DNA of 32,000 bases from Methanobacteriota archaeon (GTDB lineage Archaea > Thermoplasmatota > Poseidoniia > Poseidoniales > Poseidoniaceae): the NCBI GenBank assembly GCA_002694585.1, contig NZMM01000091.1:1-32000 (forward strand), written 5' to 3'. The position numbers and the translations under genes are program-made. A model generated the notes under the pieces. The model had not been told where the DNA came from. It was given only the letters and a program-made list of their open reading frames with translations, and made no database searches. Positions 11,640 to 28,968 of the stretch are shown here, in pieces (the first letter of the stretch is position 1; each line of letters starts with the position of its first letter).

Positions 11640-11643
11640 CCTG

Positions 11644-12497: not shown

Positions 12498-12540
12498 CAC
12501 CGCCATCCCGGCCAACGCCGGCCGCCCCCTCGGGAGACCC

Positions 12541-14150: not shown

Positions 14151-14315
14151 GGGAATACTCCTTCGAGATCATCCAGAACCATATTCGCCGCTGCGACCCC
14201 ACCTTGCTGCCACGCCAACGGATCAACAACGAGGACGTTCCCCGATTCGGCTGCGCCGAGGGTCGAGTAGAGCGGATGGTCGAGCACTGAGGGGAGTGTA
14301 CAGAGTCCCTCGTAA

Positions 14316-15584
14316 ATGTTATTAGGACTACCTATCATCAGCGTAGTGAGCGTGACGGATGAGTCTTCTGTCGATGTCGGCCCAGGTGACGGTGTCTTGT
14401 CCAAGGTGTCCTGGGTCGCGCTCGCAGCCCTGATCGCAATGGTCGCCGCTTTGTTGATCTGGCCCGAGTCGATCCCCGAATTCCAGTTCTCGTGGTTCGA
14501 GGTGGTGGGCATCGTCGGCGTGCTGACCGGCGGACCGATCATGGCTTCGACGATGGCCCGCACACGCAGCCCCACCGCTGGCCCCCTGGTTCGCAACCAT
14601 GCCCTGGCACTTCCCTGCTCACTCGCGCTCTTTTCTTTGTTTGTCCTGTTGAGCCTGCGCTGTGGCTCACTCGAGATCGACAACGCCACCGCCTGGAATG
14701 CGCTCTTCGACTACGATGACCGCGTCCCAGGACAGATCGTGGTCCGGGAGTTGCGAGTACCCCGAACCCTCCTAGGAGCGGTCGCCGGCGCCTGCCTTGC
14801 CGTCGCAGGCGCTATCACTCAGGGCGTGACCCGGAACCCTCTCGGGGCCCCGGGCATCCTCGGGGTAAACACAGGCGCGTCATTCGCGATCGTGACCGCC
14901 ATCTTCGTTGGCGGCTTCGTATCCCCCGAAGGCTATGTCTGGTTCTCTTTCATCGGAGCGGCTGGCGCTGCAGTGCTCGTCTATGCCGTCGCCTCAGTCG
15001 GGCCGGGCGGCGCCACCCCAGTCAAGCTCGCCCTCGCTGGTGTCGTGATCACCGCCCTGCTTGGCGCCTGGACTACGAGCCTCTTGCTGCTGGACCAGGA
15101 GACGCTCGACCAAGCCCGCTTCTGGCTGGCGGGTTCAATTGCCGGGCGGGGCACCGACGAGATTGCGCTGCTATGGCCCATCATCGTCACCGCTCTGATC
15201 AGCGCCATGGCGCTCGGTCGGCAGGTGAACCTCTTGTCAATGGGTGAGGACGTCGCAGCAGGTCTCGGACAGCGCGTCAACTCCGTCCGGGCGATCTCAG
15301 CAGCGGTGGTCGTCGCCCTGGCTGGCGGTGCGGTTGCGATTGCCGGCCCGGTCGCCTTCATCGGCCTTGCGATCCCTCACATGGTGCGGTCGCTCGTGGG
15401 ACCCGACTATCGCTGGATAATCCTCTACAGCCTGGTTCTCGGCCCCTGCCTGCTCCTTGGCGCCGACGTCGTCGGTCGGGTCGTCGTCCGGCCGTCCGAG
15501 CTCCAAGTCGGGATCGTCACCGCAGCAATTGGAGCGCCGTTCTTGGTTTATCTCGTCCGGTTCACGAAGCTGGCAGAGCTGTGA
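14316..15584 (+). CDS. FecCD-family iron-siderophore/heme ABC permease with a ~75-aa N-terminal extension
   Basis: Typical FecCD core from ~aa 80 (MARTRS...LSLRCGSLEI...). The upstream 225 nt keep the coding-type third-position GC bias and encode two extra hydrophobic helices. Alternative starts are GTG 14346, ATG 14541 and ATG 14553. Confidence 0.8.
   Translation: MLLGLPIISVVSVTDESSVDVGPGDGVLSKVSWVALAALIAMVAALLIWPESIPEFQFSWFEVVGIVGVLTGGPIMASTMARTRSPTAGPLVRNHALALPCSLALFSLFVLLSLRCGSLEIDNATAWNALFDYDDRVPGQIVVRELRVPRTLLGAVAGACLAVAGAITQGVTRNPLGAPGILGVNTGASFAIVTAIFVGGFVSPEGYVWFSFIGAAGAAVLVYAVASVGPGGATPVKLALAGVVITALLGAWTTSLLLLDQETLDQARFWLAGSIAGRGTDEIALLWPIIVTALISAMALGRQVNLLSMGEDVAAGLGQRVNSVRAISAAVVVALAGGAVAIAGPVAFIGLAIPHMVRSLVGPDYRWIILYSLVLGPCLLLGADVVGRVVVRPSELQVGIVTAAIGAPFLVYLVRFTKLAEL
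14321..14336. promoter_or_regulatory. degenerate iron-box-like site ATTAGGACTACCTATC (12/16)
   Basis: Lies in the divergent region between the hugZ-like gene and the permease operon. It overlaps the first possible start (14316) of the permease ORF. Confidence 0.4.
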
Positions 15585-16708
15585 CGTTCGCCATCACTGC
15601 GCCCGCAGCCAACACCGCAATGATCGTCACCGCCAGCTTGCTCGGCGTCGTTGCTGCGCTCCGTCTAGCCGACGTCGTCCCCAATCGACGCTTCTCGGTT
15701 CGTATTGGGCCAGTCAGTGCACTCATTCAGTCACGCGTGATCGTCATCGGGGTGGCCGGGTTGATACTCGCCGGCACCTTGTTGGTCATCGGATTGATCG
15801 TCGGCGACTTCCCGATCGGCGCATGGGACGCCCTCGGCGAAGCGTTCTGGGCCCGGGGAGGTGAGTTCGACTTCATCGTCAACAAGCTCCGCTTCCCCCG
15901 AGTGACCGTTGCGATCCTCGCAGGCATGTGTCTCGGCATGTCAGGCGCCATCTTCCAGGCATTGATCAACAACCCGCTGGTCTCGCCCGACATCATCGGA
16001 GTCAATGCAGGCGCTGCAGTCTTCGCCGTGCTAATCCTCGCAACCGGGAAGAACATCGGACTGTTGCCCGTAGCCGCCTTCGGTGGCGCGCTGGGGGCTG
16101 CTGCGATCATCTACCTTCTTGCCTGGAATCGTGGTGTTTCGGGTTCGCGGCTCGTGCTTGTCGGTGTTGGGGTGCAAGCACTGCTCGGGGCCGTGATCAC
16201 CTTCATCACCGTCCGTTTCCCGATCGAGCGGATCGCCGCCGCTGCTCGCTGGCAAGCCGGTTCGCTATTCGGTGTCAGTTGGGAAGACGCCCGGACGCTC
16301 ACCATCGGCTTGTTGCTGCTCACCCCAGCCGCATTCGTCTTGACCCAACGTCTGCGGCTTCTGCAGTTGGGGGACGAAGCGGCGGCGGGACTCGGCATTC
16401 ACGTCGAACGTGACCGATTGGCGTTGATCGCAGTTGCATCGGGGCTCGCGGCCGTGGCCGTCGCCGTCATCGGCCCGTTGGGCTTCGTCGCCCTACTCGT
16501 ACCTCACATGGTTCGGCTGATGGTCGGCCAACTCACCGGAGGCACATTATTGCTAACCGCAGTCGTCGGCGGCGCCTTCCTGCTCAGCGCCGATCTGATC
16601 GCCCAGCGCCTGTTCGCGCCAACGAGCCTGCCGGCCGGTGTCGTCACCGGCGCAATCGGTGGTCCGTACTTCCTCTTCCTCTTAGCTAGGTACAACCGTG
16701 CACTCTAA
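15581..16708 (+). CDS. FecCD-family ABC permease
   Basis: GTGA overlap with the upstream stop. FecCD pattern RFPRVTVAILAGMCLGMSGAIFQALINNPLVSPDIIGV. Confidence 0.9.
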   Translation: MTFAITAPAANTAMIVTASLLGVVAALRLADVVPNRRFSVRIGPVSALIQSRVIVIGVAGLILAGTLLVIGLIVGDFPIGAWDALGEAFWARGGEFDFIVNKLRFPRVTVAILAGMCLGMSGAIFQALINNPLVSPDIIGVNAGAAVFAVLILATGKNIGLLPVAAFGGALGAAAIIYLLAWNRGVSGSRLVLVGVGVQALLGAVITFITVRFPIERIAAAARWQAGSLFGVSWEDARTLTIGLLLLTPAAFVLTQRLRLLQLGDEAAAGLGIHVERDRLALIAVASGLAAVAVAVIGPLGFVALLVPHMVRLMVGQLTGGTLLLTAVVGGAFLLSADLIAQRLFAPTSLPAGVVTGAIGGPYFLFLLARYNRAL

Positions 16709-17495
16709 GTCCGACGCACCGACACTCAGCGCTGAGGGCCTGACGTTGTCTTATGGCGGCCCTGACATCGTCACAAAACTCGGCATCGTAATCCCGCCCG
16801 GCGAGATCACGGCGATCATTGGGGCCAACGGCTGCGGGAAGTCGACGCTGCTTCGGGCCATGGCCCGCCTGCTCAGACCGGTGAGCGGCGCAGTGATTCT
16901 TGATGGTGAAGCGATCAACGAACAGCCCACCAAAGCAGTTGCCCGCCGACTCGGACTACTGCCCCAAGCTCCCCGCGCACCCGAGGGCGTGATCGTGTCC
17001 GACCTCGTGCGGCGCGGCCGCTATCCCCACCAGAAGGTGTTCCAGCAGTGGAGTCCCCGCGATGAGGAAGCCTGCGAACGGGCAATGCGGCTAACCGACA
17101 TGCTCAAATTCGAGGGACGGCCCGTAGACGAACTCTCCGGTGGCCAGCGCCAGCGCGCGTGGATCGCCATGGCGCTCGCTCAGGACACGCCGCTGATGCT
17201 GCTCGATGAGCCGACGACCTACCTTGACATCGCGCATCAAGTCGACGTGCTCGAACTGCTCAAACAGCTCAACGCAAACGAGGGTCGAACCATCGTAATG
17301 GTGCTACACGACCTCAATCTGGCGTCCCGTTACGCAAACCACCTTGTCGCAGTGGCTGATGGTGGAATCGTTGCCGAGGGTGCTCCCGGCGAGGTGATCA
17401 CATCCGAGATCGTTGAGCGGGTTTTCGGCCTGCCGACGGTCGTGATCGAAGACCCGGTGACCGGTTCGCCGCTTTGCGTTCCTGCAATCAGCTGA
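16698..17495 (+). CDS. iron-siderophore/heme ABC transporter ATP-binding protein
   Basis: Walker A GANGCGKST, signature LSGGQRQR, Walker B LMLLDEPT. 11-nt overlap with the permease gene. Confidence 0.95.
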   Translation: MHSKSDAPTLSAEGLTLSYGGPDIVTKLGIVIPPGEITAIIGANGCGKSTLLRAMARLLRPVSGAVILDGEAINEQPTKAVARRLGLLPQAPRAPEGVIVSDLVRRGRYPHQKVFQQWSPRDEEACERAMRLTDMLKFEGRPVDELSGGQRQRAWIAMALAQDTPLMLLDEPTTYLDIAHQVDVLELLKQLNANEGRTIVMVLHDLNLASRYANHLVAVADGGIVAEGAPGEVITSEIVERVFGLPTVVIEDPVTGSPLCVPAIS

Positions 17496-17934
17496 TCGTG
17501 TAGTCACGCAAGAGCTTGTTGAGCTCAATCACGTGAAGCTCTTCCTCACCGATCTGGGTCCGAGCAAACTCTTCGAGGTACACCGAATCCCCCTCAGCAA
17601 TCTCAAGCATCTGCCGGTAGAGATCGAGCGCACGACGTTCGTGGGCGATCGACTCGCGCAACACGGTCTCGAGCGAATGGTCGTGGCTTTCCTCGATATG
17701 AGCGATGCCCTGGTCGGGATGACCACCGAGGCCAGTAACTAGTTCGCCCACCATCTGGGCGTGGAGAAGCGACTCCGACGCTTGCGTCTTCATGAAGTCG
17801 ACAAGGGGCAGCCGATTAGGGCCAGTGATGACCAGTGCGTAGTGGGTGTAGCGGACCACGCCGGCCAGCTCGGCCTTCATGATCTCATTGAGCACAGGAA
17901 TAAGTTTTTCGGTGTCGAAAATCTCGTCAGACAT
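17488..17934 (-). CDS. ferritin-like protein (bacterioferritin/Dps superfamily)
   Basis: 148 aa from ATG 17934 (MSDEIFDTEKL...). The four-helix ferritin-like pattern contains AELAGVVRY, ESLLHAQ, ERRALDLY and EEELHVIEL. The first ExxH is not canonical, so I do not call it bfr. Its 3' end overlaps the ATPase gene by 8 nt. Confidence 0.75.
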   Translation of the reverse strand: MSDEIFDTEKLIPVLNEIMKAELAGVVRYTHYALVITGPNRLPLVDFMKTQASESLLHAQMVGELVTGLGGHPDQGIAHIEESHDHSLETVLRESIAHERRALDLYRQMLEIAEGDSVYLEEFARTQIGEEELHVIELNKLLRDYTIS

Positions 17935-18187
17935 CAAGCTCTGCCTTCTTTGGGGGAACCCCATTCTAGAAGCGTTCGACAGCCTCTGACCCGACGAAGT
18001 CCGCGTTAGCGGCGCCCCTCCGTCAAGGTCGATCAAGACACCGGGAACGACCACCACTTCACTGCGCCTCTGGAGATAAGCCGTTTGTGCTGCTTCGAGG
18101 GCAAATACCTCCGCCTGACCCTGGTCCCGAACCCCTGAATCAGCATCATGAGCGGGTCATATCGTGCGGGTTCCTAGCCAAATCCTC

Positions 18188-18486
18188 GGTGGATGGGGTC
18201 GGAGCCGCTGGCAGTAACGAGGGGACACAAAGGGCCGAGGACAAAGCCGTGCCAAAGTTGGCTAGCAGGCCGCATGTAGGCCGCGAGATACCTCGAAGTG
18301 ACCGTTACTGCCGAGAACTGATCGGGGGAGAGTTCCCCGTAATTCAAGGGCGGTCGGGGTTTTCATCAGTTTTGTCAGTGGTCCGTTGTCGGTCTGGGGG
18401 ACCGAAGGTCGGAGGTTCAAATCCTCTCAGCCCGACCCCTGAGAATCCCTGCTTCGGCGGGGATTCTCGCCGTTTTGGGGTGGGTT
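18188..18486 (+). repeat. tRNA-Pro-3'-half/terminator element, copy 1 (best preserved)
   Basis: 5' module is ~18188-18351. A tRNA-like module follows, with a possible closing strand GGTCGGG at 18352-18358. The anticodon arm is TCGGT-CTGGGGG-ACCGA (18389-18405), the variable loop AGGTC, the T arm GGAGG-TTCAAAT-CCTCT (18411-18427) and the acceptor 3' strand CAGCCCG-A-CC (18428-18437). A terminator follows. The 5' boundary is approximate. Confidence 0.85.
18441..18476 (+). terminator. intrinsic terminator (12-bp stem, UUCG tetraloop, short U tract)
   Basis: GAGAATCCCTGC-TTCG-GCGGGGATTCTC (18441-18468) followed by GCCGTTTT. Confidence 0.8.
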
Positions 18487-18602
18487 GATCGGGCGTTTCA
18501 CCGAGGTCGGGCTATCGGCGTGGTTGGTTTTCGACAAAACTGTCCGCGGCGTCGTTGTAGTTGATCTGGACGGTAACGACACCACCTCATGGGAGAATAC
18601 CG

Positions 18603-19481
18603 ATGAACCGAATCGAACGAATGCTCGTCGCAATCACCGCCCTCGCCCTCTTGGCCTCCGCGTGTGGAGGCTCTGACGATGAGACCGCCGAGGCTCCGCC
18701 GAAGACTGAGGCGTCGGTGACTAATGACGCCGAGTCGACCGAGACCAGCGCTGCCCCGACGACATCGGCAGCCCCGACCACAACCATTGAATCACCCACC
18801 ACCACGACCACCACTGAATCACCAACTACTTCCACGACTGTCCCGACTGCAGAACAGGTAACTGGGAGTGACTGCGTATTGGAGACGACCAATGGCGCTA
18901 TCGCCGGCATCGATGACGGAACAGACATCGTGCTCGCAGTAGCGACCCTGGTTGACAAATGCGGATTGCCCGATCTCGATTCAGGCTGGGGATGGAGTTG
19001 TGCGATGGGAGGTCCAGATTGGGATGGGCCTCAAGAGCCGGAGCGCACAATCTCCTGGGGAGGCCTGGTTCTCACATTCTGGCGTCAGCCCGACAACATG
19101 TGGGCGCCCCAAGAATTCAGTGAATCCCCTACATACTCCGACGCCGGAGTGCTCAGCTCTTGGCGATTTTCTGGTTGGGAAGAAGACCGAGTAGCACTCG
19201 ACATCCACGAGGCTGGAATCTCTTTAGGCACCCCACTGAGCGAGATCGCAGAAGCAGTCGGGGTCGCAGTGGCACCACATGACTGGTACACCGAAGGATC
19301 CTGGGATGACTACGTCGACTACGTGTTGGGCGTCTTCGGCATCATGGATTTCGTTGGCGGAGATGGTGTCGTGTATTCCGGCTGGATAGAGGATTTCCCA
19401 CCGACGACTCCAGCGAATTTTGAAGAGGCGCTTGCTTCAACCAGCCTCTCGATGATCGGCGAGCTGCAGTTCTGCGATTAA
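18603..19481 (+). CDS. lipoprotein with a Thr/Pro-rich linker and a C-terminal domain of unknown function
   Basis: MNRIERMLVAITALALLASACGGSDDE signal peptide with lipobox. Linker APTTSAAPTTTIESPTTTTTTESPTTSTTVP. GGGAGAA RBS before ATG 18603. Confidence 0.8.
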   Translation: MNRIERMLVAITALALLASACGGSDDETAEAPPKTEASVTNDAESTETSAAPTTSAAPTTTIESPTTTTTTESPTTSTTVPTAEQVTGSDCVLETTNGAIAGIDDGTDIVLAVATLVDKCGLPDLDSGWGWSCAMGGPDWDGPQEPERTISWGGLVLTFWRQPDNMWAPQEFSESPTYSDAGVLSSWRFSGWEEDRVALDIHEAGISLGTPLSEIAEAVGVAVAPHDWYTEGSWDDYVDYVLGVFGIMDFVGGDGVVYSGWIEDFPPTTPANFEEALASTSLSMIGELQFCD

Positions 19482-19504
19482 GACGCCGGTAGTGGCGGCC
19501 CGGT

Positions 19505-19750
19505 GAAGGTGAGAAGGCCGGCACAGCCGTCTAGCAGGCCGCATCTAGGCCGCGAGATTTCTCAAATCGACCATCACTGCCGAGAACTGGTCGGGGAAGG
19601 TTTCCCTGCGATTCAGGGCCGCTGAGGGGTTTCGTCAGTTCCTTCAGGCTTGTGTTGTCGGTCTGGGGGACCGAAGGTTGGAGGTTCAAAATCCTCTCAG
19701 CCCGACCCCTGAGAATCCCTGCTTCGGCGGGGATTCTCGCCGTTTTGGGC
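19505..19750 (+). repeat. tRNA-Pro-3'-half/terminator element, copy 2 (diverged 5' module; 8-nt T loop)
   Basis: Anticodon arm at 19658-19674. The T arm GGAGG-TTCAAAAT-CCTCT (19680-19697) carries a 1-nt loop insertion. CAGCCCG-A-CC at 19698-19707. The terminator is identical to copy 1. Confidence 0.8.
19711..19746 (+). terminator. intrinsic terminator, identical to the copy 1 hairpin
   Basis: GAGAATCCCTGC-TTCG-GCGGGGATTCTC followed by GCCGTTTT. Confidence 0.8.
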
Positions 19751-19887
19751 TGGCGTGGTTGAGCGAGCCGGTGAACTGCAGGCCGTCTCAAGGTCGTGAA
19801 CCGCTCGAAGAAGAGTCGAGAAGACCTTTGCTAGCACAACGACACAGAGGGCCCCTCGGGTCTCTTGCTGGCCGTTATCATTAATGA

Positions 19888-21576
19888 GTGCGCATCCGCC
19901 ACGTGATCCCGACCGTCGGCTCCGAAGCTTCCGACGCTCTTTGCGCCGCCCAGAAGATGACACTTGCGTCGGTCGATCGGGCTCTACGAGCGGCCGATCC
20001 TGGCTTACAGATTGAGGTTCGCGCCGTTCACTACCCTGATGAGCCGTGCGACTCGCATCCGTGGCTGACCGCTACTCCCGCGCTCAAGCGGTCGATCCTT
20101 GATTTTGGCGACTTCGATACCCCACGTCGCCTTCCTCTGCTCGCTGACGTTCTGGCGGCATTTGATGGTGGCGACGAATACGACATTGCTGTCTTCACGA
20201 ATGTTGATATCGCCCTGCACCCCCTGTTCTACGACCTAGTTCGCGACACCCGCTCCGACGGCTACGACGCGTTCTCGATCACCCGGCGTACCGTTCAAGC
20301 CCGCTTCGGTGGCTCGACGCTCGCTCAACTCGCCACCACGCGCAGCTCGCCCCATCCCGGCCATGACTGCTTCGCCATGACGCCCGAACTTGTCCTGAAG
20401 GCCGACGTGGGCAACGTCGCCCTCGGCGTCCGTTGGGTCGCTAGAACGCTGTTGTGGAACCTCAAGCTCAATGCCAGGCGCTTTGAGAACTTCGCCGACC
20501 TGCACGCCACGTTCCACATCGGTGACGACAGGATTTGGGCTGACCCCCGCTTGAAAGCGTTCGACGAACACAACGAACGTGAAGCACACGGCGTCGTTGA
20601 GCGCCTTTGCGCAAGGCATGGTGAGGAACGGGTCGAGCGTTTGGCGGGCGCTAGACCGTTCGTGAGGGCCATGCGCAAAAATGCCTCGCCCGTCATCAAA
20701 TCTGCGAAATGGCGAGTTTTCAGTCCGCAAGATCCACCTCATCCGCAGGATCCGCCCTATGTGTCTGGTTCGCACCAGCTCATTTTCTCAGCCAACCCAG
20801 GGCGTAGCGGTTCTCAGTACCTCGCCGAACTGCTCGGCGAGTCGCCAAACGTGATCGCCGGCCACGAGAAAGAACCAGCAATGACGGGTGGATGGCTACG
20901 CGACGTTGTCCACCGTGGTCCCGGTCCTAGTCGTGAGCTTCGCCGAATAAAGGCCGACACGGTTCGCGCAGAGCTCGCTGGCCTCGCGGACTCTACGCGC
21001 TACGCGGATACATCCCACATGTTCGTCAAGACGTTTGCTGATGTGATTTTCGACGAGTTTCCCCACCATCTTGTGTCGGTGGTGGTTCTCCGCCGCGATC
21101 CGATCTCAGTTGCAAGAAGCTTCTTCGAACTCGACTACATGGGGCTCACCAATGCCCCCTGGCCCGATTTCATGCCGCCGCCTACGGCACCGGCGTCCAT
21201 GTTCCACATCCCGGCTGACGAGATCCGCAGCCGGTTCGATCTGATCTTCGGCTATCTGATCGATTTTGAAATCCGCTCCCAAACGCTGCGAGAGCAAGCG
21301 CCGAGTGCCCGATGGATCGATACCCGACTCGAGGAGATCACCACCGTTGAGGGCGCCACTCGTCTCTTTGACAGGCTCAGAGTTCCTACGCCCCCGCAAC
21401 TTGCCGAAATCGTCAATCGGAAAGTCAACGTCAAGCAGAAGAGGAAAGCCACGATTAATCAGCCGACGACGCTCGTAGCCGTTGAGCGGGCCTGGAGCGA
21501 CTTCCTCAACCGCTTTGGGCACCGAGATGAAGTCGGCGCATACGCTGAACTCCACGGACTGGCGACAGGCTCGTGA
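19888..21576 (+). CDS. two-domain protein: N-terminal GT-A-like (glycosyltransferase-like) domain plus C-terminal sulfotransferase domain
   Basis: GTG start. N-terminal IRHVIPTV...EYDIAVFTNVDIALHPLFY...DAFSITRR. The C-terminal half has a PAPS 5'-PSB-like motif FSANPGRSGSQYL and a 3'-PB-like motif VVVLRRDPISVARS. Confidence 0.75.
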   Translation: MRIRHVIPTVGSEASDALCAAQKMTLASVDRALRAADPGLQIEVRAVHYPDEPCDSHPWLTATPALKRSILDFGDFDTPRRLPLLADVLAAFDGGDEYDIAVFTNVDIALHPLFYDLVRDTRSDGYDAFSITRRTVQARFGGSTLAQLATTRSSPHPGHDCFAMTPELVLKADVGNVALGVRWVARTLLWNLKLNARRFENFADLHATFHIGDDRIWADPRLKAFDEHNEREAHGVVERLCARHGEERVERLAGARPFVRAMRKNASPVIKSAKWRVFSPQDPPHPQDPPYVSGSHQLIFSANPGRSGSQYLAELLGESPNVIAGHEKEPAMTGGWLRDVVHRGPGPSRELRRIKADTVRAELAGLADSTRYADTSHMFVKTFADVIFDEFPHHLVSVVVLRRDPISVARSFFELDYMGLTNAPWPDFMPPPTAPASMFHIPADEIRSRFDLIFGYLIDFEIRSQTLREQAPSARWIDTRLEEITTVEGATRLFDRLRVPTPPQLAEIVNRKVNVKQKRKATINQPTTLVAVERAWSDFLNRFGHRDEVGAYAELHGLATGS

Positions 21577-22277
21577 CCAGCCCAATTTGGTTTTTTTACC
21601 ACCTCCCAAAGACAGGCGGCCAGACGATCCGCGATCACCTTCACGCGGGCCTTGGCAGCGAGGGCTACCTCCATCTGGGAAAGTGGGATCGAGACCGACC
21701 CCTCGGGTTTGACGACGTCGCGGCGATGTCCGCAGATCAGCTTGCGGGTCTCCGCGCGATCGGTGGGCATCCGCTTACCGTCAAATTCCACTCGCTGTTC
21801 GCCGACCGCTCGAAAAGGGAGATCGTCGTTGTGCGCGAGCCAGCGGCGCGAATCGTTTCGCATTACAACTTCTCCAACACAATGCGGGAGCGTCGCAGTG
21901 AGCCACTGCTTGATTTTGAGGAGTTTCTCACCAGTCAGACCAACAGGCAGACGATTGCTTTGGTTCACCGCTTCGGGCTGCCCCGCTCGAGGCAGCTACT
22001 GGACAAAGTGCTTTATGGCCTGACCCGTTGTGCCTTCGTCGGTCGGACTGACGACCTCGATCAGACCCTCCCCCTCCTTTTCGGAGCGATCGGTATCAGC
22101 TCCGAAGTCAAAGGTCGCTCAAACGTCACTGGCGAGACCATCAATCGCTACGTCGAACTTACGCCGTCGCTATCGGCACGGTTGCAAGCCGAAAATCCGC
22201 TCGACGTCATGCTCTATTCAGCCGTCGGTCGTCTCCAAGACGCGAGTGTGAGCCGACTACAAGACTCCAAAGACTGA
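21573..22277 (+). CDS. sulfotransferase (Sulfotransfer_2-like)
   Basis: FFYHLPKTGGQTI (5'-PSB) and IVVVREPAARIVSHYNF (3'-PB). GTGA overlap with the upstream stop. Confidence 0.8.
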   Translation: MTSPIWFFYHLPKTGGQTIRDHLHAGLGSEGYLHLGKWDRDRPLGFDDVAAMSADQLAGLRAIGGHPLTVKFHSLFADRSKREIVVVREPAARIVSHYNFSNTMRERRSEPLLDFEEFLTSQTNRQTIALVHRFGLPRSRQLLDKVLYGLTRCAFVGRTDDLDQTLPLLFGAIGISSEVKGRSNVTGETINRYVELTPSLSARLQAENPLDVMLYSAVGRLQDASVSRLQDSKD

Positions 22278-22287
22278 GGTCAAGATT

Positions 22288-22815
22288 GTGCCGTCCCTTC
22301 ACCGCCGCCTTCGAAACCGCCATACACGGATGCTTGTTCAACTCGGCGCGATGACCACAGGCGTTGCGGCCACCTTGCTGATTGCACACGACGAGCCTGC
22401 GAGTCGAGCGATCGGAACAGCAGTTTTGGCCGTTATCGCGATCGTCGCTATCAAGCTCGCTCTCGTTGCGATCAACTCGCCTGGCCAGGGCACAAACGCC
22501 TCCCGGTCGGGGACCTCCGCTGATCAGCGCTCGAAGTTCGATGAGATCGCCGCACGTATCGGTGCGCTCGAGGCGCTCGACAGTTGGGACGGAAATCCGA
22601 TTGATAGGTCAGCAACTTCCCACTTTGAGTCTCAGCACGTGCGCAAGGAGGTCGACCGTCTGCAGGCAGAGGTCGATGAAATCATTACCCGTATCGGTGC
22701 TCTTGAGGCGCTTGGCCGTGGCAGCGAACAGGCGATTGCGAGCGCAGCAACTACTCAATTTGAGCTTCAGCACGTGCGTGAGGAGTTAGACCGTTTGCGG
22801 TCACAAGTCGACTGA
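22288..22815 (+). CDS. membrane-anchored protein with two tandem ~45-aa coiled-coil repeats
   Basis: Hydrophobic segments at aa ~20-62. It then contains DEIAARIGALEAL...HFESQHVRKEVDRLQAEV and DEIITRIGALEAL...QFELQHVREELDRLRSQV. GTG start with GAGG 8 nt upstream; ATG 22330 is an alternative. Confidence 0.65.
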   Translation: MPSLHRRLRNRHTRMLVQLGAMTTGVAATLLIAHDEPASRAIGTAVLAVIAIVAIKLALVAINSPGQGTNASRSGTSADQRSKFDEIAARIGALEALDSWDGNPIDRSATSHFESQHVRKEVDRLQAEVDEIITRIGALEALGRGSEQAIASAATTQFELQHVREELDRLRSQVD

Positions 22816-22831
22816 CCAGAAATGGTTGTCA

Positions 22832-22966
22832 TTAACTCGACTCGATCAGCCGCCAAGGATCTCGGAACGCGAGCCGCTGAAGGTCGTAATCCTCTCCCGT
22901 GATGTGCTCCGACGCCTCGTCGACCAGCTCGGTTTGCTCACAGCAAACGGCCTCCAATGCTGTCAT
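22832..22966 (-). CDS. possible small acidic protein (44 aa)
   Basis: MTALEAVCCEQTELVDEASEHITGEDYDLQRLAFRDPWRLIESS. About 73 percent G/C at third positions. I see no recognisable RBS or homology. It abuts the 5' end of repeat copy 3. Confidence 0.25.
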   Translation of the reverse strand: MTALEAVCCEQTELVDEASEHITGEDYDLQRLAFRDPWRLIESS

Positions 22967-23265
22967 GGCGGATTGGATCGGAGCTGCCGGCGGTTGCGAA
23001 GGGACACAAGGGGCCGAGAACAAACCTGGCCGCAGCCGCCTAGAAGGCCGCATCTAGGCCGTGAGATATCTCACATGGACCCTTACCGCCGGGAACTGAT
23101 CGGGGGAAGAGTTCCCTGTAATTCACGGGCGGTCGGGGGTTTCGTCAGTCTTGTCGGTGGTCCGTTGTCGGTCTGGGGGACCGAAGACCGAAGGTTCACG
23201 TCCTCTTAGCCCGACCCTTGAGAAGCCCTGCTTCGGCTGGGATTCTCGTCTTTTTGGGTTGGGTT
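22966..23265 (+). repeat. tRNA-Pro-3'-half/terminator element, copy 3 (5' module ~85 percent identical to copy 1 by eye; decayed 3' module)
   Basis: GGTCGGG at 23131-23137. Anticodon arm at 23168-23184. A 7-nt duplication ACCGAAG/ACCGAAG follows. The T arm is degenerate (GAAGG-TTCACGT-CCTCT). TAGCCCG-A-CC ends at ~23216. The 5' boundary is approximate. Confidence 0.8.
23220..23255 (+). terminator. decayed copy of the element terminator (two stem mismatches, longer U tract)
   Basis: GAGAAGCCCTGC-TTCG-GCTGGGATTCTC followed by GTCTTTTT. Confidence 0.55.
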
Positions 23266-23325
23266 GCTCCGGTCAGGCGATGACCTGCGGATCGGCGCAT
23301 TTAGTCCTTCGGGTATGTTGAGTCG

Positions 23326-24045
23326 ATGAAGCGATTCTTGATGTGTCTTTTGGTCGCCGTGGCGGCTGCCGGCTGCGGTGGCGACTCTTCCGACGAACTT
23401 GAGGCCGCACTTGAGCGGATTGAGGAGCTCGAGGCGGCTCAGCAGGATGCTGCAGAGACGACGTCAACGCAGCCGACGACCACGTCGCTAGCAGCCACTA
23501 CTTCGACCACGACTGCGCCGCCGGCCACGACGACCGCGGCGCCGGCAACCACGACCACGGTGCCCGTCTGTGATGCTTCGTGGTCCGACGCACCTGATGT
23601 CACTTCGGGCTGGCCATCGGCTGCGTTCACTGCTCCCGGGCGTTCGTTGCAGGAGGAGGTCAGGATCGGAACACATCCCGGCTATGACCGCTTCCTCATC
23701 GAGTTCGAGGAGGACGGACGAACCCCGAATGGGTGGAGCGTCAGCTGGATCTTCGGGTCACCACTTCATGACGGATCTGGTGAGCCGGTCGACATGGAAG
23801 GCGATGAGTTCCTCGAAGTTCGCTATCTCGGATCAGCCGGGTGGGTGACGTATCCCGAGGCCTGGTACCAGGGACCGCAGGAATTCTTTGGCAGCACCAT
23901 TGGCGCCGGCAATCTCGTCGAGGCGGAGATGGCGGGGGACTACGAGGGCTACGTGACCTGGTACGTATCCACCCAGACGAAACGCCCGTTCAACGTCTTC
24001 ACACTGACGGGCCCGCCTCGTTTGGTCGTCGACATCTGCCACTAG
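23326..24045 (+). CDS. lipoprotein with a Thr-rich linker and a C-terminal domain of unknown function
   Basis: MKRFLMCLLVAVAAAGCGG lipobox, then SSDELEAALERIEELEAA, then the linker TTSTQPTTTSLAATTSTTTAPPATTTAAPATTTT, then RIGTHPGYDRFLIEFEEDG... Confidence 0.8.
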   Translation: MKRFLMCLLVAVAAAGCGGDSSDELEAALERIEELEAAQQDAAETTSTQPTTTSLAATTSTTTAPPATTTAAPATTTTVPVCDASWSDAPDVTSGWPSAAFTAPGRSLQEEVRIGTHPGYDRFLIEFEEDGRTPNGWSVSWIFGSPLHDGSGEPVDMEGDEFLEVRYLGSAGWVTYPEAWYQGPQEFFGSTIGAGNLVEAEMAGDYEGYVTWYVSTQTKRPFNVFTLTGPPRLVVDICH

Positions 24046-24048
24046 AGG

Positions 24049-24105
24049 GGTAGGGACACAACAGACCGGGAACAAAGCCAGCGAGCGATTGACGTTAGGG
24101 CAGCC
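24049..24105 (+). repeat. isolated fragment of the 5' module of the repeat element
   Basis: GGGACACAACAGACCGGGAACAAAGCC...TTGACGTTAGGGCAGCCCC compares with copy 1 GGGACACAAAGGGCCGAGGACAAAGCC...TTGGCTAGCAGGCCGC. No tRNA-like part or terminator follows it. Confidence 0.45.
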
Positions 24106-24149
24106 CCTCACCCAGACTTCAAAGACAGTCAAATAGAGAAGTGAGTCAG

Positions 24150-24779
24150 ATGATGAATCCCTACCCGACGCAGCGAGCAAATCGGGCCTTCAGAACACTG
24201 GTCGCTGCAGTTGCGGTCCTGTGCGTCGCTGGTTGCAGCAGTTCGGGCGACACCAGTGCAGAGGGAGCTGGCACTGTGGAGGCGGCTTCTTCAACGACTG
24301 CGTCCCCCACGACAACGGATACGCCATCGACGACGACCGAGTCGTCGACAGCGACGATTCCCGAAACGACGACTGTGCCCCCTGTGACCGTTACGACAAC
24401 AACATCCCTGCCTCACGATGACGAACCGCCAGAAGCTCCTACAGGTTTGGTTTGTCTCGGTATGGGTGGGGGCAGTATGGAAGTGCTTTTGGCCTTTGAT
24501 GCCCCGTCAGATCCGACGGATATCGAGACGATCCGTGTGTACGTCGACGAGGGGAGCGGCTTTCAACGTGTCGCCAAAACCACGATTGACGGTTCTCCGG
24601 CGTCTTTGGGCAGCGTCTTCGATCTCAACACCACCGATCCAACAACATGGTCGATGGGGGTCTTTCCAGTGCCGGACGGTGCGGAGATCGGTATCGCTGT
24701 GACGTTCGGCGACGCCGCTGGCAACGAATCGGGCTGGTATCCCATCACGGTGACGCCAACGGGCATCAGTTGCTCGTAA
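24150..24779 (+). CDS. lipoprotein with a Thr-rich linker and a beta-rich C-terminal domain of unknown function
   Basis: AVAVLCVAGCSSS lipobox. Linker SSTTASPTTTDTPSTTTESSTATIPETTTVPPVTVTTTT. The track start is GTG 24141; ATG 24150 is preferred (AGAGAAG RBS). Confidence 0.75.
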   Translation: MMNPYPTQRANRAFRTLVAAVAVLCVAGCSSSGDTSAEGAGTVEAASSTTASPTTTDTPSTTTESSTATIPETTTVPPVTVTTTTSLPHDDEPPEAPTGLVCLGMGGGSMEVLLAFDAPSDPTDIETIRVYVDEGSGFQRVAKTTIDGSPASLGSVFDLNTTDPTTWSMGVFPVPDGAEIGIAVTFGDAAGNESGWYPITVTPTGISCS

Positions 24780-24797
24780 CCCGAGTCGGCAGCGCTT

Positions 24798-24988
24798 GGC
24801 GATTGGGTGGGCGGCCCGAGGTGCTGCCGTTGGGGAGTTGACGGGGCGAGGATCCCCCGGCGTCGTTGCTTCTTGCCGGGGTGTTCTTTGTCGGTCTGGT
24901 GGACCGAAGGTCGGAGGTTCAAATCCTTTCAGTCCGACCCCTGAGAATCCCTGCTTCGGCGGGGATTCTCGCCATTTTGGGGTGGGTT
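24798..24988 (+). repeat. tRNA-Pro-3'-half/terminator element, copy 4 (central ~110 nt deleted; anticodon GGG changed to GGT)
   Basis: 5' remnant GGCGATTGGG...GGGGCGAGG. Anticodon arm TCGGT-CTGGTGG-ACCGA (24891-24907). T arm GGAGG-TTCAAAT-CCTTT (24913-24929). CAGTCCG-A-CC at 24930-24939. The terminator is identical to copy 1. Confidence 0.75.
24943..24978 (+). terminator. intrinsic terminator, same hairpin as copy 1
   Basis: GAGAATCCCTGC-TTCG-GCGGGGATTCTC followed by GCCATTTT. Confidence 0.8.
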
Positions 24989-25059
24989 GAGCGACCGACG
25001 CGATGAACCTCTAGTTGTTCGTCGGGCGGCGTGGGCGCGGCTTTGGCTATTCTCCTGCC

Positions 25060-26247
25060 ATGAAATCCGCAGCTGTTTGTCTGATTGCGGCAGTGACTTT
25101 GACGGGCTGTGGCAGCGGCAGCGGTGCTTCTTCCGACGAGCTTGACGCAGCGATTGACCGTATCGAGGAACTGGAAGAAGCGCTTGTCCGCATCGAGGAA
25201 GCGGAGCCAGCGTCGGCCGATTCGAACGGCATGGTCGAGTTGACTCCGGCGGCGGTTGGTGCGCAGTTCAGCGATGCCGTTTGGATGGTCGAAACAGGTG
25301 CCTGCGCGAATTACGCGACGGGGTCGGGGTTTGCCGTATCTGAAACCATCGTGGTGACGAACCAACATGTTGTTCAAGACGACATGGCACCGTTCCTGGC
25401 TCGCCGAGATGGTCGAAGGGTTGCCGCACGCGTCCTCGATTCGAGCGTTGAGCTTGACGTTGCCGTGCTGTCCGTCGAGGAACCGCTCGACGCCCATCTC
25501 GAATGGGTGGACCTTGACACGCTGCGTGAGGGCGACCCGGTGATCAGCCTCGGCTACCCGGCTCCGTTCAACGAGTATGCCGTCAGTCCCGGAACTCTTC
25601 TGTCGTTCATTGTCGAAGATGGCAGAAGGATTGGTGTGGTCTCAGATGAGAGCAGCGACTATGGCTCCAGCGGCGGGCCCCTTCTCACCGCTGATGGGCA
25701 CATCATCGGTGTTGTCACGGAATTCGTCGACGCAGAGCTTTCAGGTCAGACGAATGGACAGAGCTACACCTATGACCGTCTGGGCGACTTCATCGAGCAG
25801 GCAAAGCAGGCCGAACCGAAGGCTGCCTTGACATGCGATGGTTTCGAATATGGAACCAACGAAATCGCAGACTCGCTTTGGGACCTTTGCGCCGACGAGC
25901 GCTACTGGGCATGCGACAGCCTCTACGACCTGGATCAGTACCTCCCTGTCGGCGGTGAGTACTCCGACTTCGGCGCAACGTGTGGGGATCGCGTCGAGAC
26001 TGACCGCTACTGCGTCGAGGAGTTCGGAACGATGAATCCGCTGCAGTATGGGGACGATCCGTTCCTCGACGACCTGCATGATGCGTGTCTTGGCGCTGAT
26101 GGTGATGCCTGCGACACGTTGTGGATGGCAACAGTCGGGTTCGAAGACGCTGCGTACTTTGACGTCGCAGCTACCTGTGGCGGTACCGAAGAGTTCGATG
26201 TTGTGTGGTGTGGCGACATCGTCCCTGAGCTCACCGGTGACCCCTGA
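25060..26247 (+). CDS. trypsin-like (S1/S1C-type) serine protease lipoprotein with a C-terminal tandem 4-Cys module
   Basis: MKSAAVCLIAAVTLTGCGSG lipobox. Catalytic-type motifs TNQHVV (His), LDVAVL (Asp) and DYGSSGGPLL (Ser). Cys-rich tail at 25834-26211. Start taken at ATG 25060. Confidence 0.85.
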   Translation: MKSAAVCLIAAVTLTGCGSGSGASSDELDAAIDRIEELEEALVRIEEAEPASADSNGMVELTPAAVGAQFSDAVWMVETGACANYATGSGFAVSETIVVTNQHVVQDDMAPFLARRDGRRVAARVLDSSVELDVAVLSVEEPLDAHLEWVDLDTLREGDPVISLGYPAPFNEYAVSPGTLLSFIVEDGRRIGVVSDESSDYGSSGGPLLTADGHIIGVVTEFVDAELSGQTNGQSYTYDRLGDFIEQAKQAEPKAALTCDGFEYGTNEIADSLWDLCADERYWACDSLYDLDQYLPVGGEYSDFGATCGDRVETDRYCVEEFGTMNPLQYGDDPFLDDLHDACLGADGDACDTLWMATVGFEDAAYFDVAATCGGTEEFDVVWCGDIVPELTGDP

Positions 26248-26374
26248 TTTGCCCATGATGACGACCGCAGTGCCTCACGAGGCGGAGCGACGCGGATCGT
26301 GGCCGGCCGATATCTTTCCACCGACCTGATCGCTCGGGTCCTCGGAAATCAGTGCGGGCCCTAGGCTCCTCGCC

Positions 26375-27796
26375 ATGACCCCCGAGGAATTCCGCGCCGC
26401 CGCTCACGAACTGATCGACTGGCTGGTCGACCGTCGTGTCGCGATCGAAGATCGTCCCGTGCGGCCGCCCGTCGACCCGGGCGACATTCGGCGAGCGTTG
26501 CCCTCCCAACCGCCGCAGGGTGGAGATTCGGCGAGTGAGCTGATCGCCGATCTCGAATCGATCATCGCTCCGGGGATCACCGAGGTGCAGCATCCGATGC
26601 ACTTCGGCTGGTTCCCGTCGAACGCAAGCCTTTCGTCGATCCTGGGTGACTTCGCATCGTCGGGCCTCGCCTCGCTCGGCATCTCCTGGGAATCGTCACC
26701 CAGCCTCACCGAGGTTGAGGAAGTCGTGGTCGACTGGCTTCGTGAGCTGACCGGACTCAGCGATGCGTGGTCTGGTGTCATCCAGGACACGGCCTCGACT
26801 GCCTGCCTCGTCGCCATGTTGGCGGCCCGCGAGCAGGCCACCGGCCACGCCCAGACCGGGGGCGGAGTGCTCGGCTTCGGTAAACGACTCCACGTCTACA
26901 CCACCAGCGAAGCTCACTCGTCGGTGCGGAAGGGTGCCCTGCTCGCCGGCTTCGCCGCCGACGACATCCGGGTGATCGACGTTGATCCGGTCAGCCGAGA
27001 CATGCGGTCCGATGCGTTGGCCGAGACTATGGCCGCTGATGTCGCTGCCGGGGGTGTGCCAACGATCGTGGTCGCCTCGCTTGGCTCAACCAGCGTGACG
27101 GCATTCGATCCGTTGCCGGAGATCATCGATATTGCTCGCCGCCACGGCGCATGGATCCACGCCGATGCCGCAATGGCCGGCTCGGCGATGCTCCTGCCCG
27201 AGTACCGCCATCTCTTCGCAGGGATTGAGGACGCAGACTCGATCTCGTGGAACCCCCACAAGTGGATGGGCACCATCCTCGACACATCGCTGCTGTACCT
27301 GCGAGATCCGGAGCACCTGATCCGGGTGATGTCGACCAACCCGAGTTATCTGCAGTCGACCGCCGGCGGGGAGGCCACCCAGTACCGCGACTGGGGCATC
27401 CCGCTCGGGCGCCGTTTCCGAGCGCTCAAGCTCTGGTACCAACTCCGACTTGATGGTCCGGAGGCGATCCGTCAGCGACTCCGGCGCGACCTTGACAACG
27501 CACAGTGGTTCGCCGAACGCATCGCCGAGAAGCCGGGTTGGGACGTCGTGGCTCCGGTGCGGCTCCAGACCGTGTGTGTTCGCCACACACCCGCTGAGCT
27601 CGAGGGTGATGCGGCAGCGGTCAGCGGTCACAATCAGCGCTGGGTCCGTGATGTCAACGTCTCGGGCGCCGCCTTTCTGTCCCCGTCGCTGCTCGATGGC
27701 GGATGGATGGCGAGGGTGTCGATCGGTGTTGAGTCGACCGAGCGACGCCATCTCGAGCAGCTGCTCGATCTGATGGACGAACACACCCGCATCTGA
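26375..27796 (+). CDS. PLP-dependent group II (aromatic-L-amino-acid/DDC-type) decarboxylase
   Basis: HPMHFGWFPSNAS, the DAAMAGSA region, and SWNPHKWMG carrying the PLP-lysine motif. Confidence 0.9.
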   Translation: MTPEEFRAAAHELIDWLVDRRVAIEDRPVRPPVDPGDIRRALPSQPPQGGDSASELIADLESIIAPGITEVQHPMHFGWFPSNASLSSILGDFASSGLASLGISWESSPSLTEVEEVVVDWLRELTGLSDAWSGVIQDTASTACLVAMLAAREQATGHAQTGGGVLGFGKRLHVYTTSEAHSSVRKGALLAGFAADDIRVIDVDPVSRDMRSDALAETMAADVAAGGVPTIVVASLGSTSVTAFDPLPEIIDIARRHGAWIHADAAMAGSAMLLPEYRHLFAGIEDADSISWNPHKWMGTILDTSLLYLRDPEHLIRVMSTNPSYLQSTAGGEATQYRDWGIPLGRRFRALKLWYQLRLDGPEAIRQRLRRDLDNAQWFAERIAEKPGWDVVAPVRLQTVCVRHTPAELEGDAAAVSGHNQRWVRDVNVSGAAFLSPSLLDGGWMARVSIGVESTERRHLEQLLDLMDEHTRI

Positions 27797-27819
27797 ACAG
27801 GAGCTACGGCAGCTGCGGC

Positions 27820-28968
27820 TCAGTACCCGTCGGTGAGCGGACCAGCGAGACCAGGGCGGTCCGCTGCCACATGAGATGGCGTCAGCCCCAACTCAATCAG
27901 CCGATCGGGCCAGGCTGCGTCGCCGATATTCGCTGCGGTGGCTTGGGCGAGGGCGTCAGCGGTGTGGATGCCGTAGCCGCCTTGACCGACCAGCCAGTAG
28001 AAGCCATCGACGGCCGGGTCGTATCCACTGACGGGCGTGCGATCCGAGGTGAAGGTACGCAGTCCAGCCCACGTCGAGCGGACATGACGAACCTCAAGGG
28101 TCGTGAACGCTGCGAGGTTATGAAGGCCAAGCGCGACATCATGTTCTTCAGGCTTCGCATCGCACGGTTCCGAGGGCGTCTCGTCGGCCGGCGACACGAG
28201 CAGGCCGCCCGGTTCCGGTTTGCAGTAGCCGATCATGCCGCTGCGGTCATCAGGCTGGAAAGCAGTGATCGGCCAACGACGGACCTCGTCGGCGTCGAAG
28301 TGTTCGGGGATCGCCGCGATCGCAATGGTGCGGCGCAGCGGATGCAGACCGAGAGGCTGAGCGCCCGCAAGTTCGCCGATCCGGTCGCCCCAAGCCCCTG
28401 CGGCGTTGACCACCACCGGCGCTGCGAGCGTGTGTTCGCCGGCCACGACTCGCCACGAGCCCTCGGTGCGTTCAAGTGAGCGCACCGGCGCCGATGTGTG
28501 GATCGTGCCATCCGCAGCGCGAAAGCGCTGTACGAAGTTCTGGTGGTAGCTCGCGACGTCGATGTCTTTGGAGTCGGGTTCCCACAGCGCCCCGGCAATC
28601 TCGGGCCGCAGGATCGGCAGGATCTCCCGGGCCTGATCACCATCGAGGAACTCGGTTGTCGGGACAAGCGTCTTGGCGTGCTCGACCTGGGCCTTGAGTG
28701 CCTCCACGCGCGGTTCACGCCCGACCATGAGTTCCGGTCTGGGGCCGAGAAAGGGGAGCAGCGACGCTTTCGACGCGAGGGTGAGCTTGCGGACTTCGTC
28801 GTTGCCGTAATTCTCGAGGTACTGCGCCGCCGATCGCCCAGTCGTGTGGAATGCCAAGGTCGCTTCGGCCTCAACCAGCACGACCGACGCTCCCTGTTCG
28901 GCGAGTCGGGCAGCGGCGGACACGCCAGCAATCCCGCCCCCGATCACGACAACGTCACAGCTCCTCAT
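27820..28968 (-). CDS. FAD-dependent oxidoreductase (DAO family; glycine/D-amino-acid/amine oxidase-like)
   Basis: MRSCDVVVIGGGIAGVSAAARLAEQGASVVLVEAE from ATG 28968. The longer track ORF would overlap the divergent HD gene. Confidence 0.85.
   Translation of the reverse strand: MRSCDVVVIGGGIAGVSAAARLAEQGASVVLVEAEATLAFHTTGRSAAQYLENYGNDEVRKLTLASKASLLPFLGPRPELMVGREPRVEALKAQVEHAKTLVPTTEFLDGDQAREILPILRPEIAGALWEPDSKDIDVASYHQNFVQRFRAADGTIHTSAPVRSLERTEGSWRVVAGEHTLAAPVVVNAAGAWGDRIGELAGAQPLGLHPLRRTIAIAAIPEHFDADEVRRWPITAFQPDDRSGMIGYCKPEPGGLLVSPADETPSEPCDAKPEEHDVALGLHNLAAFTTLEVRHVRSTWAGLRTFTSDRTPVSGYDPAVDGFYWLVGQGGYGIHTADALAQATAANIGDAAWPDRLIELGLTPSHVAADRPGLAGPLTDGY

Follow-up and report, generated by a model that had tools for sequence, protein, structure and literature searches.

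A variable genomic island at tRNA-Pro(GGG), probably formed by tandem accretion of decayed integrative elements

Introduction

Tandem accretion of elements at tRNA and transfer-messenger RNA (tmRNA) genes, cis-mobilizable elements (CIMEs) without an integrase, and cassette islands anchored at a tRNA gene have all been published (PMC4383910, PMC5704250, PMC3146451, bioRxiv 10.1101/2020.12.28.424599). Attachment (att) sites centred on the anticodon form one main class recorded for tRNA islands, and integrase open reading frames (ORFs) that extend across attP are known for Mx8 and SSV (PMC4383910). In the Islander collection, an array is recognised by members that each carry their own integrase and measure at least 2 kb, and just four arrays of three or more members are listed (PMC4383910). 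The subject of the present study is a stretch of 32,000 nucleotides (contig NZMM01000091.1, positions 1 to 32,000; hereafter the window), in which a composite repeat ending in the 3' half of tRNA-Pro(GGG) separates small gene cassettes between positions 18188 and 24995. An earlier note on this DNA did not recognise the arrangement as a described system, which the publications above contradict.

The region is read here as the distal part of a variable genomic island at tRNA-Pro(GGG), formed by tandem accretion of decayed, CIME-like integrative elements; we assign this reading a probability of roughly 0.85. The comparison contigs bear L numbers, and every comparative sequence is a metagenome assembly. 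They include a 1.42-Mb long-read contig (L172), a further long-read contig (L183), a Sanger contig of the Global Ocean Sampling (GOS) survey (L159) and a single 55-kb TARA scaffold (L179). The host appears, from its sequence, to be an uncultured but abundant marine Acidimicrobiia population.

Results

Four direct copies of the composite unit lie on the + strand of the window, together with one 5' fragment, as the earlier note had reported. Copies c1 (18188-18493), c2 (19499-19763) and c3 (22967-23272) are full units, and c4 (~24798-24995) has a shortened and diverged arm. The layout is an arm of ~200-250 nt, followed by positions 27-76 of tRNA-Pro(GGG) and then by a 12-bp hairpin. Within the 32 kb, the 49-nt core and the 28-nt hairpin motif are both confined to the copies, and shuffled sequence, against which the chance level of core and hairpin matches was judged, gave 0 matches. 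The core corresponds to positions 27-76 of a genuine Acidimicrobiia tRNA-Pro(GGG) in the same orientation as the gene; homology to the intact gene begins exactly at position 27, where the anticodon stem opens, and runs to the 3' end. A scan with the anticodon arm (GTCGGTCTGGNGGACCGAAG), in which one genome per species was searched, matched >120 genomes or loci, nearly all of them Acidimicrobiia and nearly all intact tRNA-Pro(GGG) genes. These matches bear out the proposed identity of the module as a tRNA-Pro 3' half. No copy is itself a tRNA gene, again in line with the note. ARAGORN detects no tRNA and no tmRNA anywhere in the window, and the Rfam tRNA model scores the copies at 22-29 bits. 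Its threshold (29) is just reached by c4 alone, whose 29.1 bits are obtained only by deleting the D arm.

The core of copy 1 (18389-18495, +) comprises the tRNA part (18389-18437), the hairpin (18441-18468), a T-run and a shared stub of ~20 nt, and matches the intact gene in L010 and L172 at 100% identity. The core of copy 2 (19658-19763, +) has one extra A in the T loop and its hairpin at 19711-19738. The core of copy 3 (23168-23272, +) is decayed, with mutations in the T stem and T loop and two changes in the hairpin (23220-23247). The core of copy 4 (24891-24995, +) is the last att (attR) and has the anticodon GGT and a hairpin at 24943-24970. In every copy the hairpin starts 3 nt after the core, which confirms the spacing described previously. 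In the closest relatives (L010, L009, L037, L025, L035 and L120) an intact tRNA-Pro is followed by the same hairpin, and pairing is kept via compensatory changes, with GAGAAT/ATTCTC replaced by GAAGAT/ATCTTC in L035 and by GAGAAC/GGTTCT in L120. An intact tRNA-Pro(GGG) with the same 3' half and terminator, for which the earlier note had suggested looking, was found in L010, L172 and others. Because the T-run is limited to 4 T, a simple terminator scanner gives no call on the hairpin. The window contains no inverted repeats of at least 40 nt. In L158 (900-1130, reverse complement) a full arm is followed by the first 25 nt of the core only and then by an unrelated minus-strand gene, an arrangement that looks like a deletion of the remaining att site.

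The conservation upstream of the tRNA part that had been noticed earlier is real and extends over ~200-250 nt in c1-c3, at 71-88% identity. The arms of different cassettes are 80-90% alike, and the cargo is unrelated. They carry a direct pair of 8-mers with 11-nt spacing, YAGGCCGY-N3-YAGGCCGY. Arm 1 (18188-18388, +), the P arm of an attP-type site, contains the pair as CAGGCCGC-ATG-TAGGCCGC at 18266-18284; arm 2 (19499-19657, +) contains it at 19535-19553, and arm 3 (22967-23167, +) at 23044-23062, homology of arm 3 to the other arms beginning ~35 nt earlier. Arm 4 (24798-24890, +) is the shortened and diverged one. The window holds four matches to the pair versus 0.35 expected, namely those in arms 1-3 and one on the P' side of c2 (19779-19797). 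The pair was also observed on the P' side, between the hairpin and an integrase gene, in L167, L169, L171, L173 and the distant L008, and in Y, the arm homologue of L179 that is described below. Their occurrence on both att arms makes the paired 8-mers resemble arm-type binding sites, possibly for the integrase or for an accessory protein.

Several other identities of the arm were considered and rejected. Single-nucleotide indels between arms rule out a coding function. No Rfam family matches the ~200 nt upstream of the core; searches up to E 10 returned weak, terminator-driven matches (rnk leader, rsmX, istR) far below threshold. RNAalifold on eight distinct arms gave a covariation term of +2.4, which is penalising, with a double change in 4 of 67 pairs. 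A tmRNA or permuted tRNA was suggested by the minimum-free-energy fold of c1, which pairs the 5' end of the arm (GGGGUCGG) with the acceptor 3' strand. This candidate was discarded because the pairing is 4 nt off the acceptor stem and absent in the other arms, and because ARAGORN finds no tmRNA. A viral origin found no support either: when IMG/VR was scanned with the core, anticodon arm and arm motif, the matches were confined to large-phage tRNA arrays.

An intact tRNA-Pro(GGG) heads the array in three contig sets of the same population, which are ~99% identical. In the following, cas1 to cas4 denote the cargo of cassettes 1 to 4. L172 starts with SpoIIE, a zinc-ribbon protein, tRNA-Pro(GGG), cas1, arm 2, core 2, cas2, arm 3 and core 3, and continues with cas3, the fragment, cas4, arm 4, core 4, a protease and a decarboxylase. 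The array opens as in L172 in L162 and L163. In L178, L182 and L184, which are 99.5-100% identical to the window, the order is zinc-ribbon protein, tRNA-Pro, core, X (840 nt with one 126-aa ORF), R', pre_c1, arm 1, core 1, cas1 and arm 2. An intact tRNA-Pro stands at the start of the array in L161 as well. L010, which is 95% identical to window 24052-27995, has an intact tRNA-Pro at the position of c1; behind it come a cassette 1 variant, the fragment, cassette 4, c4 and the protease. The statement in the note that no intact tRNA-Pro is present is therefore correct within the window and wrong for the real locus, which starts at the intact gene in L172, L162/163 and L178/182/184.

The intact tRNA is missing from the window because a two-copy repeat of 620 bp links the left 18 kb to the array. 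This repeat, R (17378-17997), contains the last 110 nt of an ATP-binding cassette (ABC) ATPase gene, a Dps/ferritin gene (17488-17934, minus strand) and the 63 nt upstream of it. One copy is chromosomal, at the iron-uptake locus, and the other, R', lies inside a cassette designated E0; R was also located at 5891-6510 of L178 (reverse complement) and at 6079-6698 and 8019-8638 of L132. In nine contigs (L126, L127, L129, L130, L176, L177, L180, L181 and L183) the chromosomal R is followed by a UvrD-like helicase. Conversely, R stands between X and pre_c1-arm 1 in L178/182/184, L159 and L179, and the Sanger contig L159 links X, R, pre_c1, arm 1 and core. The distances into R at which contigs stop match k-mer overhangs, and two single-nucleotide polymorphisms (17614 and 17942) sort imperfectly between the chromosomal and cassette contexts of R. 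E0 thus appears to consist of X, R', pre_c1 and arm 1, and c1 appears to be the right-hand att of E0, the first cassette. By the same comparison, the mobile cassette E0 seems to have captured chromosomal DNA in the form of a Dps copy. The join of the left 18 kb to the array via R is probably an assembly chimera, and similar mis-joins are the most likely explanation for L128/L185, L134 and L132, a true recombinant being less likely. A genuine chromosomal rearrangement (deletion or inversion) between Dps and the array was considered and set aside; a deletion would remove core genes, hemE and lnt among them, and a two-copy R fits better. On the TARA scaffold L132, positions 6699-8638 belong to the order ABC, R, pre_c1, arm 1, core, X, R and helicase. 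Its succession of arm 1, core and X may stem from a circular or tandem E0, or E0 may have been inserted at the Dps locus by homologous recombination.

The position of the crossover was deduced from L179, which carries E0 (98.5-99.5% identity) at another locus, a tRNA-Met(CAT) gene. Three junctions occur there, written here with a slash at the point of the switch. At the first, the intact tRNA-Met (...TCGGGCT/CATAACCCGA...) is followed by a Pro-type hairpin and the 190-nt arm homologue Y. At the second, Y passes into the Pro core (Y...CGTTCT/GGGGGACCGA...), and the right part of the Pro core, its hairpin, X, R', pre_c1 and arm 1 follow. At the third, arm 1 passes into the Met sequence (arm1...TCGGTCT/CATAACCCGA...), after which come the displaced Met 3' half and another hairpin, presumably the native one. 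All three junctions of this one scaffold switch directly after C32-U33 of the anticodon loop. tRNA-Met and tRNA-Pro share 24 of 25 nt further 3' (CCGAAGGTCGNAGGTTCAAATCCT), and no switch falls there, which argues against homologous recombination and against a k-mer chimera. The hybrid junctions indicate site-specific recombination, and they support the proposal of the earlier note that the copies are att scars of a recombinase. The presence of E0 at two tRNA loci with precise ends implies movement. No recombinase is found in E0, which would therefore have been moved in trans. In the same part of L179 (5539-7755, reverse complement), the hairpin behind tRNA-Met(CAT) is of the tRNA-Pro type (GAAGATCCCTGCTGCGGCAGGGATCTTC) and the displaced Met 3' half has another one; the terminator would therefore travel with the elements, and the element lineage seems to have switched its target tRNA while keeping the terminator.

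Tyrosine integrase genes occupy this site in the same population. In L169 a convergent gene matching PF00589 (Phage_integrase, E 1e-19) lies ~50 nt beyond the tRNA and hairpin. L173 contains the tRNA, an integrase, an ABC sugar-transporter cargo, a core, an integrase remnant and a glycosyltransferase/sulfotransferase cargo. Related integrases lie beside tRNA-Pro(GGG) in L008, L025, L066, L085, L087, L113 and L174, and the integrase-bearing elements of L173 and L174 occupy the same tRNA with different right ends. In the window, the 3' end of such a gene is retained at 19761-19829 on the minus strand as the last 23 codons with an internal stop, and the P'-side paired 8-mer (CAGGCCGTCTCAAGGTCGT) lies within it at 19779-19797. 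The remnant is 72% identical to the L169 integrase over 47 aa (tblastn), and window 19732-19817 is 80% identical over 86 nt to the sequence past the L169 hairpin (blastn). Because the remnant follows c2, cassette 2 would descend from an element that once bore an integrase gene and has since lost it. The absence of an integrase reported earlier accordingly holds for the window, where the 23-codon remnant is all that is left, and fails for the sister strains L169 and L173, which carry an integrase directly behind the tRNA.

Two further features of these genes were observed. In L174 an integrase gene of 198 aa stands after an unrelated 351-aa ORF; the short form of the integrase may be functional, or most copies may be decaying. 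The integrase frames of L169 (825-1400, minus strand), L173 (15193-15786) and L008 (1474-2799) stay open in antisense across the hairpin and the entire tRNA gene before a stop is met, so the last ~45 integrase residues would be encoded by the att site and tRNA.

The cassettes differ between strains. Cassette 2 with arm 3 is missing from L139, L140, L141, L160, L162 and L163, strains that are ~99% identical. An extra cassette of ~930 nt with a full arm follows c4 in L136, L137, L139, L140 and L160. L161 has the tRNA, a sulfotransferase cassette, an arm, a core, another cassette and cas3. Every variable segment consists of cargo plus arm and one core, and the arm is therefore the right end of the cassette on its left, like the P arm of attP. 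Presence or absence of single cassettes with breakpoints in the repeat, which the earlier note had named as a check, was thus seen between strains, always bounded by the repeat and with the breakpoints inside it.

All cassette genes lie on the + strand, and four lipoboxes (LLASAC, AAAGC, VAGC and LTGC) can be read among their proteins, in agreement with the description of same-strand cassettes rich in lipoproteins. The remainder of cassette E0 (pre_c1, 17998-18187, +) is non-coding and leads into arm 1; its last ~50 nt already resemble the arm fragment of L010. The cargo of cassette 1 (18603-19481, +) is a 292-aa lipoprotein with no Pfam match, which sits directly behind the intact tRNA in L162, L163 and L172. 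The cargo of cassette 2 (19888-22815, +) comprises three proteins of 562, 234 and 175 aa. The first (also called at 539-557 aa) has no assigned function, and the second is sulfotransferase-like. The third, a coiled-coil protein (ORF 22288-22815), contains a 135-nt tandem duplication at 22535-22804 with 73% identity, which gives this small membrane-anchored cassette protein two copies of a 45-residue coiled-coil-like segment. Cassette 3 (23326-24045, +) encodes an AMIN-like lipoprotein (PF24837, E 2e-29). It is followed by the decayed junction (24049-24140, +), where the first ~60-90 nt of an arm are left and the remaining arm and the core are deleted; a longer version of this junction is present at L010 1676-1800. 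Cassette 4 (24141-24779, +) encodes a lipoprotein of ~210 aa. Cassette 1, the pair 3+4 taken as one unit, and E0 contain cargo alone, with no integration or transfer genes, and arm-core units flank each of the three. Altogether, the integrase-less cassettes measure 0.9-3.4 kb and carry lipoproteins, a sulfotransferase-like protein and the Dps copy.

The island is bounded by a trypsin-like lipoprotein protease (25051-26247, +), a conserved chromosomal flank that is present in every relative. This gene (25110-25175) and the AMIN-like lipoprotein gene (23367-23432) share a 66-nt N-terminal stretch with 73% identity, which encodes a lipobox and then SSDELEAAxxRIEELE. The sharing suggests a common export or anchoring module, or recombination between the genes. 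The G+C content is 0.58-0.61 over the island (window 17000-26000) versus 0.62-0.67 in both flanks, a difference that fits DNA of foreign origin or fast turnover. Window 6675-17495, on the upstream side of the island junction, holds an iron-acquisition cluster that is unrelated to the finding. This cluster includes an Fe-dependent repressor, two periplasmic binding proteins, an ABM monooxygenase-like gene, a siderophore-interacting protein, PNPOx/DUF2470 haem-utilisation-like proteins and a FecCD ABC transporter.

Discussion

These observations point to the following course of events at tRNA-Pro(GGG). The attP of the element would comprise a P arm of ~200-250 nt, the anticodon stem-loop with the rest of the tRNA 3' half, the hairpin terminator and, directly next to the 3' end of a convergent tyrosine integrase gene, a short P' arm. 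An arriving element would integrate behind C32-U33 in the anticodon loop and provide the tRNA with a new 3' half and terminator, and the old 3' half would be displaced downstream. Serial integration would stack the elements with the newest beside the tRNA, and each junction between elements would therefore consist of P arm, tRNA 3' half and terminator, that is, a complete attP-type site. The suggestion of the earlier note that a whole attP-type site stands at every junction is supported. Later loss of the integrase genes would leave cargo-only cassettes, which retain both att sites and could therefore still be moved by an integrase in trans. Since a tRNA-type hairpin follows each cassette, its genes would need their own promoter and their transcription would be insulated. 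Homologous recombination between the ~300-nt units would delete cassettes and homogenise the repeats.

Several observations weigh against this reading. The junctions of the cassette 2 deletion are mosaic and differ between strains: L139 changes from c2-type to c3-type inside the hairpin, and L141 shows several switches in the arm and core. The losses of cassette 2, and some homogenisation of the repeats, thus appear to reflect homologous recombination and not precise excision. Among the integrase homologues that were followed, no integrase-bearing element was recovered with the arm of the array at its far end, and the one complete element seen, in L173, ends in sequence that is merely vaguely arm-like. 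The closest integrase homologues are mostly 100-260 aa long and represent the catalytic domain only or fragments; an active arm-binding enzyme in the population is therefore putative. E0 has no P'-side 8-mers, yet it appears to have moved. The succession of arm 1, core and X in L132 is equally explicable as a cycle in the assembly graph, and no circular intermediate was seen directly. Finally, all comparative data are metagenome assemblies, and the L179 junctions come from a single scaffold.

A more ambitious version of this scheme is a working cassette system, analogous to an integron with lambda-type att sites, in which the array would be more than a collection of decayed islands. A small tyrosine integrase acting in trans would excise, reshuffle and re-insert integrase-less cassettes of 1-3 kb via the tRNA genes for Pro-GGG and Met-CAT, capturing chromosomal genes such as the Dps copy of E0. 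Each cassette would retain a complete att, composed of a P arm with paired YAGGCCGY sites, the anticodon stem-loop core and the terminator. We regard this extension as possible, though on balance doubtful. If true, it would be a dedicated means for an abundant marine actinobacterium to vary its surface proteins.

The same mosaic cores and arms, with their strain-specific switch points in L139 and L141, and the private variants shared by cores 4 and 5 of L136, which look like gene conversion, could also mean that the unit is a passive homology anchor. Cassettes would then be exchanged solely by homologous recombination (transformation, transduction or unequal crossing-over), with no site-specific recombinase. 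This is improbable: the switches in L179 fall where the partners share just CT and avoid the long shared stretch, integrase genes occupy the exact site in the same population, and an integrase remnant opens cassette 2. Moreover, cassettes with unrelated cargo end in homologous arms that bear a paired 8-mer also found beside integrase genes, and the boundary of homology at tRNA position 27 is typical of anticodon-centred att sites (PMC4383910). The stronger folding of copy 1 compared with shuffles (z -3.3), the strong hairpin with T-run that closes every unit, and the 22-29 bits of the Rfam tRNA model would suit a functional structured RNA, such as a tRNA-like element of the 3' untranslated region, a small RNA or a leader attenuator with terminator, that was duplicated with surface-protein genes. 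The consensus fold of the eight arms is penalised by its covariation term, however, and the 8-bp pairing of the c1 arm 5' end with the acceptor strand is lost in the other arms. The tRNA part also decays freely (broken T arm in c3, changed anticodon in c4), the arm matches no Rfam family, and the core is identical to the 3' half of the host tRNA itself, all of which make such an RNA very improbable.

Concern that the repeats or the whole array are a product of metagenome assembly arises from the left junction, which runs through the 620-bp repeat, and from the many contigs that break at repeats. Given that the array from cas1 to the protease is present in >15 independent assemblies, including L172, k127/k141 contigs and the Sanger GOS contig, this explanation is largely refuted for the array and scarcely tenable as a whole; the suspect part appears to be the ABC/Dps-to-array join alone. 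The earlier note had also likened the layout to an integron, and small same-strand cassettes with a recurring recombination site and variation between strains do recall an integron platform, in which a dedicated terminal integrase is combined with a primary attI and folded attC-type sites. This likeness was not borne out. Neither the window nor any relative yielded an IntI-type gene, attI, attC or common promoter. In place of imperfect inverted repeats, the sites consist of a directly repeated tRNA 3' half with long arms, a terminator stands after each cassette, and the integrases are ordinary phage-type enzymes that converge on the tRNA, so that an integron has a negligible likelihood.

Tandem accretion of decayed elements, the favoured explanation, makes the locus a cleanly resolved case of strain-level variation in gene content in abundant uncultured marine Acidimicrobiia. 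Among cells with ~99% identity elsewhere, tiny cassettes for lipoproteins and surface-modifying enzymes vary at one tRNA gene. The definition of crossover point, arm motif and att-borne terminator is sharp enough to look for this element family in other genomes. The repeats of the island and the chromosomal copy borne by a cassette also lead to mis-joins of short reads, which can make an ordinary tRNA island look anomalous.

Among described systems, the Islander tandem islands with anticodon-centred 'A' class att sites (Williams 2002, PMC100330; Hudson et al. 2015, PMC4383910) resemble this locus in that one end is marked by an intact tRNA and the displaced 3' fragments form direct repeats. 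In both, attP carries a tRNA fragment that regenerates the gene, the crossover is in the anticodon loop, the newest element lies beside the tRNA, and the integrase adjoins the tRNA with an ORF that crosses att. In contrast to Islander arrays, no member in the window has an integrase, several members are ~1 kb, and four to six are stacked. CIMEs (Pavlovic 2004; Bellanger 2011; reviewed in PMC5704250) have likewise lost their integration genes and kept attL and attR, and stack by integration into a resident att; their ability to be mobilised by a related integrase may have a counterpart here. They differ in lying beside integrative and conjugative elements or integrative mobilizable elements of Firmicutes, at protein-gene or tRNA-Lys sites, and in being usually larger and linked to conjugation (PMC5704250), whereas the present cassettes are miniature and no transfer functions were seen.

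The tycheposon-shaped islands of Prochlorococcus (Hackl et al., bioRxiv 10.1101/2020.12.28.424599), together with additive flexible genomic islands of marine bacteria, resemble the locus in the streamlined marine host, the tRNA anchor, partial tRNAs between cargo, older insertions pushed inward and integrase fragments, and in surface or nutrient cargo that differs between co-occurring strains. Tycheposons are defined, however, by their own integrase and replication hallmark genes, and they belong to another host phylum and another target tRNA. Replication genes of this type (primase, helicase or polymerase) were not seen in the window, L169, L173 or L174, and a long conserved arm with an att-borne terminator at every junction is not reported for tycheposons. 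The ssrA islands of Dehalococcoides (PMC3146451) similarly show >12 direct repeats of the target 3' end in tandem downstream of one gene; some are without an integration module and have been put forward as CIMEs, and the repeat is bordered by additional conserved nucleotides. They differ in their serine recombinase (DsiB), 20-bp repeat, tmRNA T-loop site and size of ~10 kb or larger. With integrons the likeness is functional only, a one-directional stack of small promoter-poor cassettes with a recurring site. Here, IntI, attI, Pc and attC are absent, the att sites are lambda-type and derived from a tRNA, and each cassette is terminated and therefore needs its own promoter, unlike integron cassettes. 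What is particular to this island is the combination of small cassettes, a complete att unit of ~300 nt at every junction, an att-borne terminator, the use of two tRNA genes and captured chromosomal DNA.

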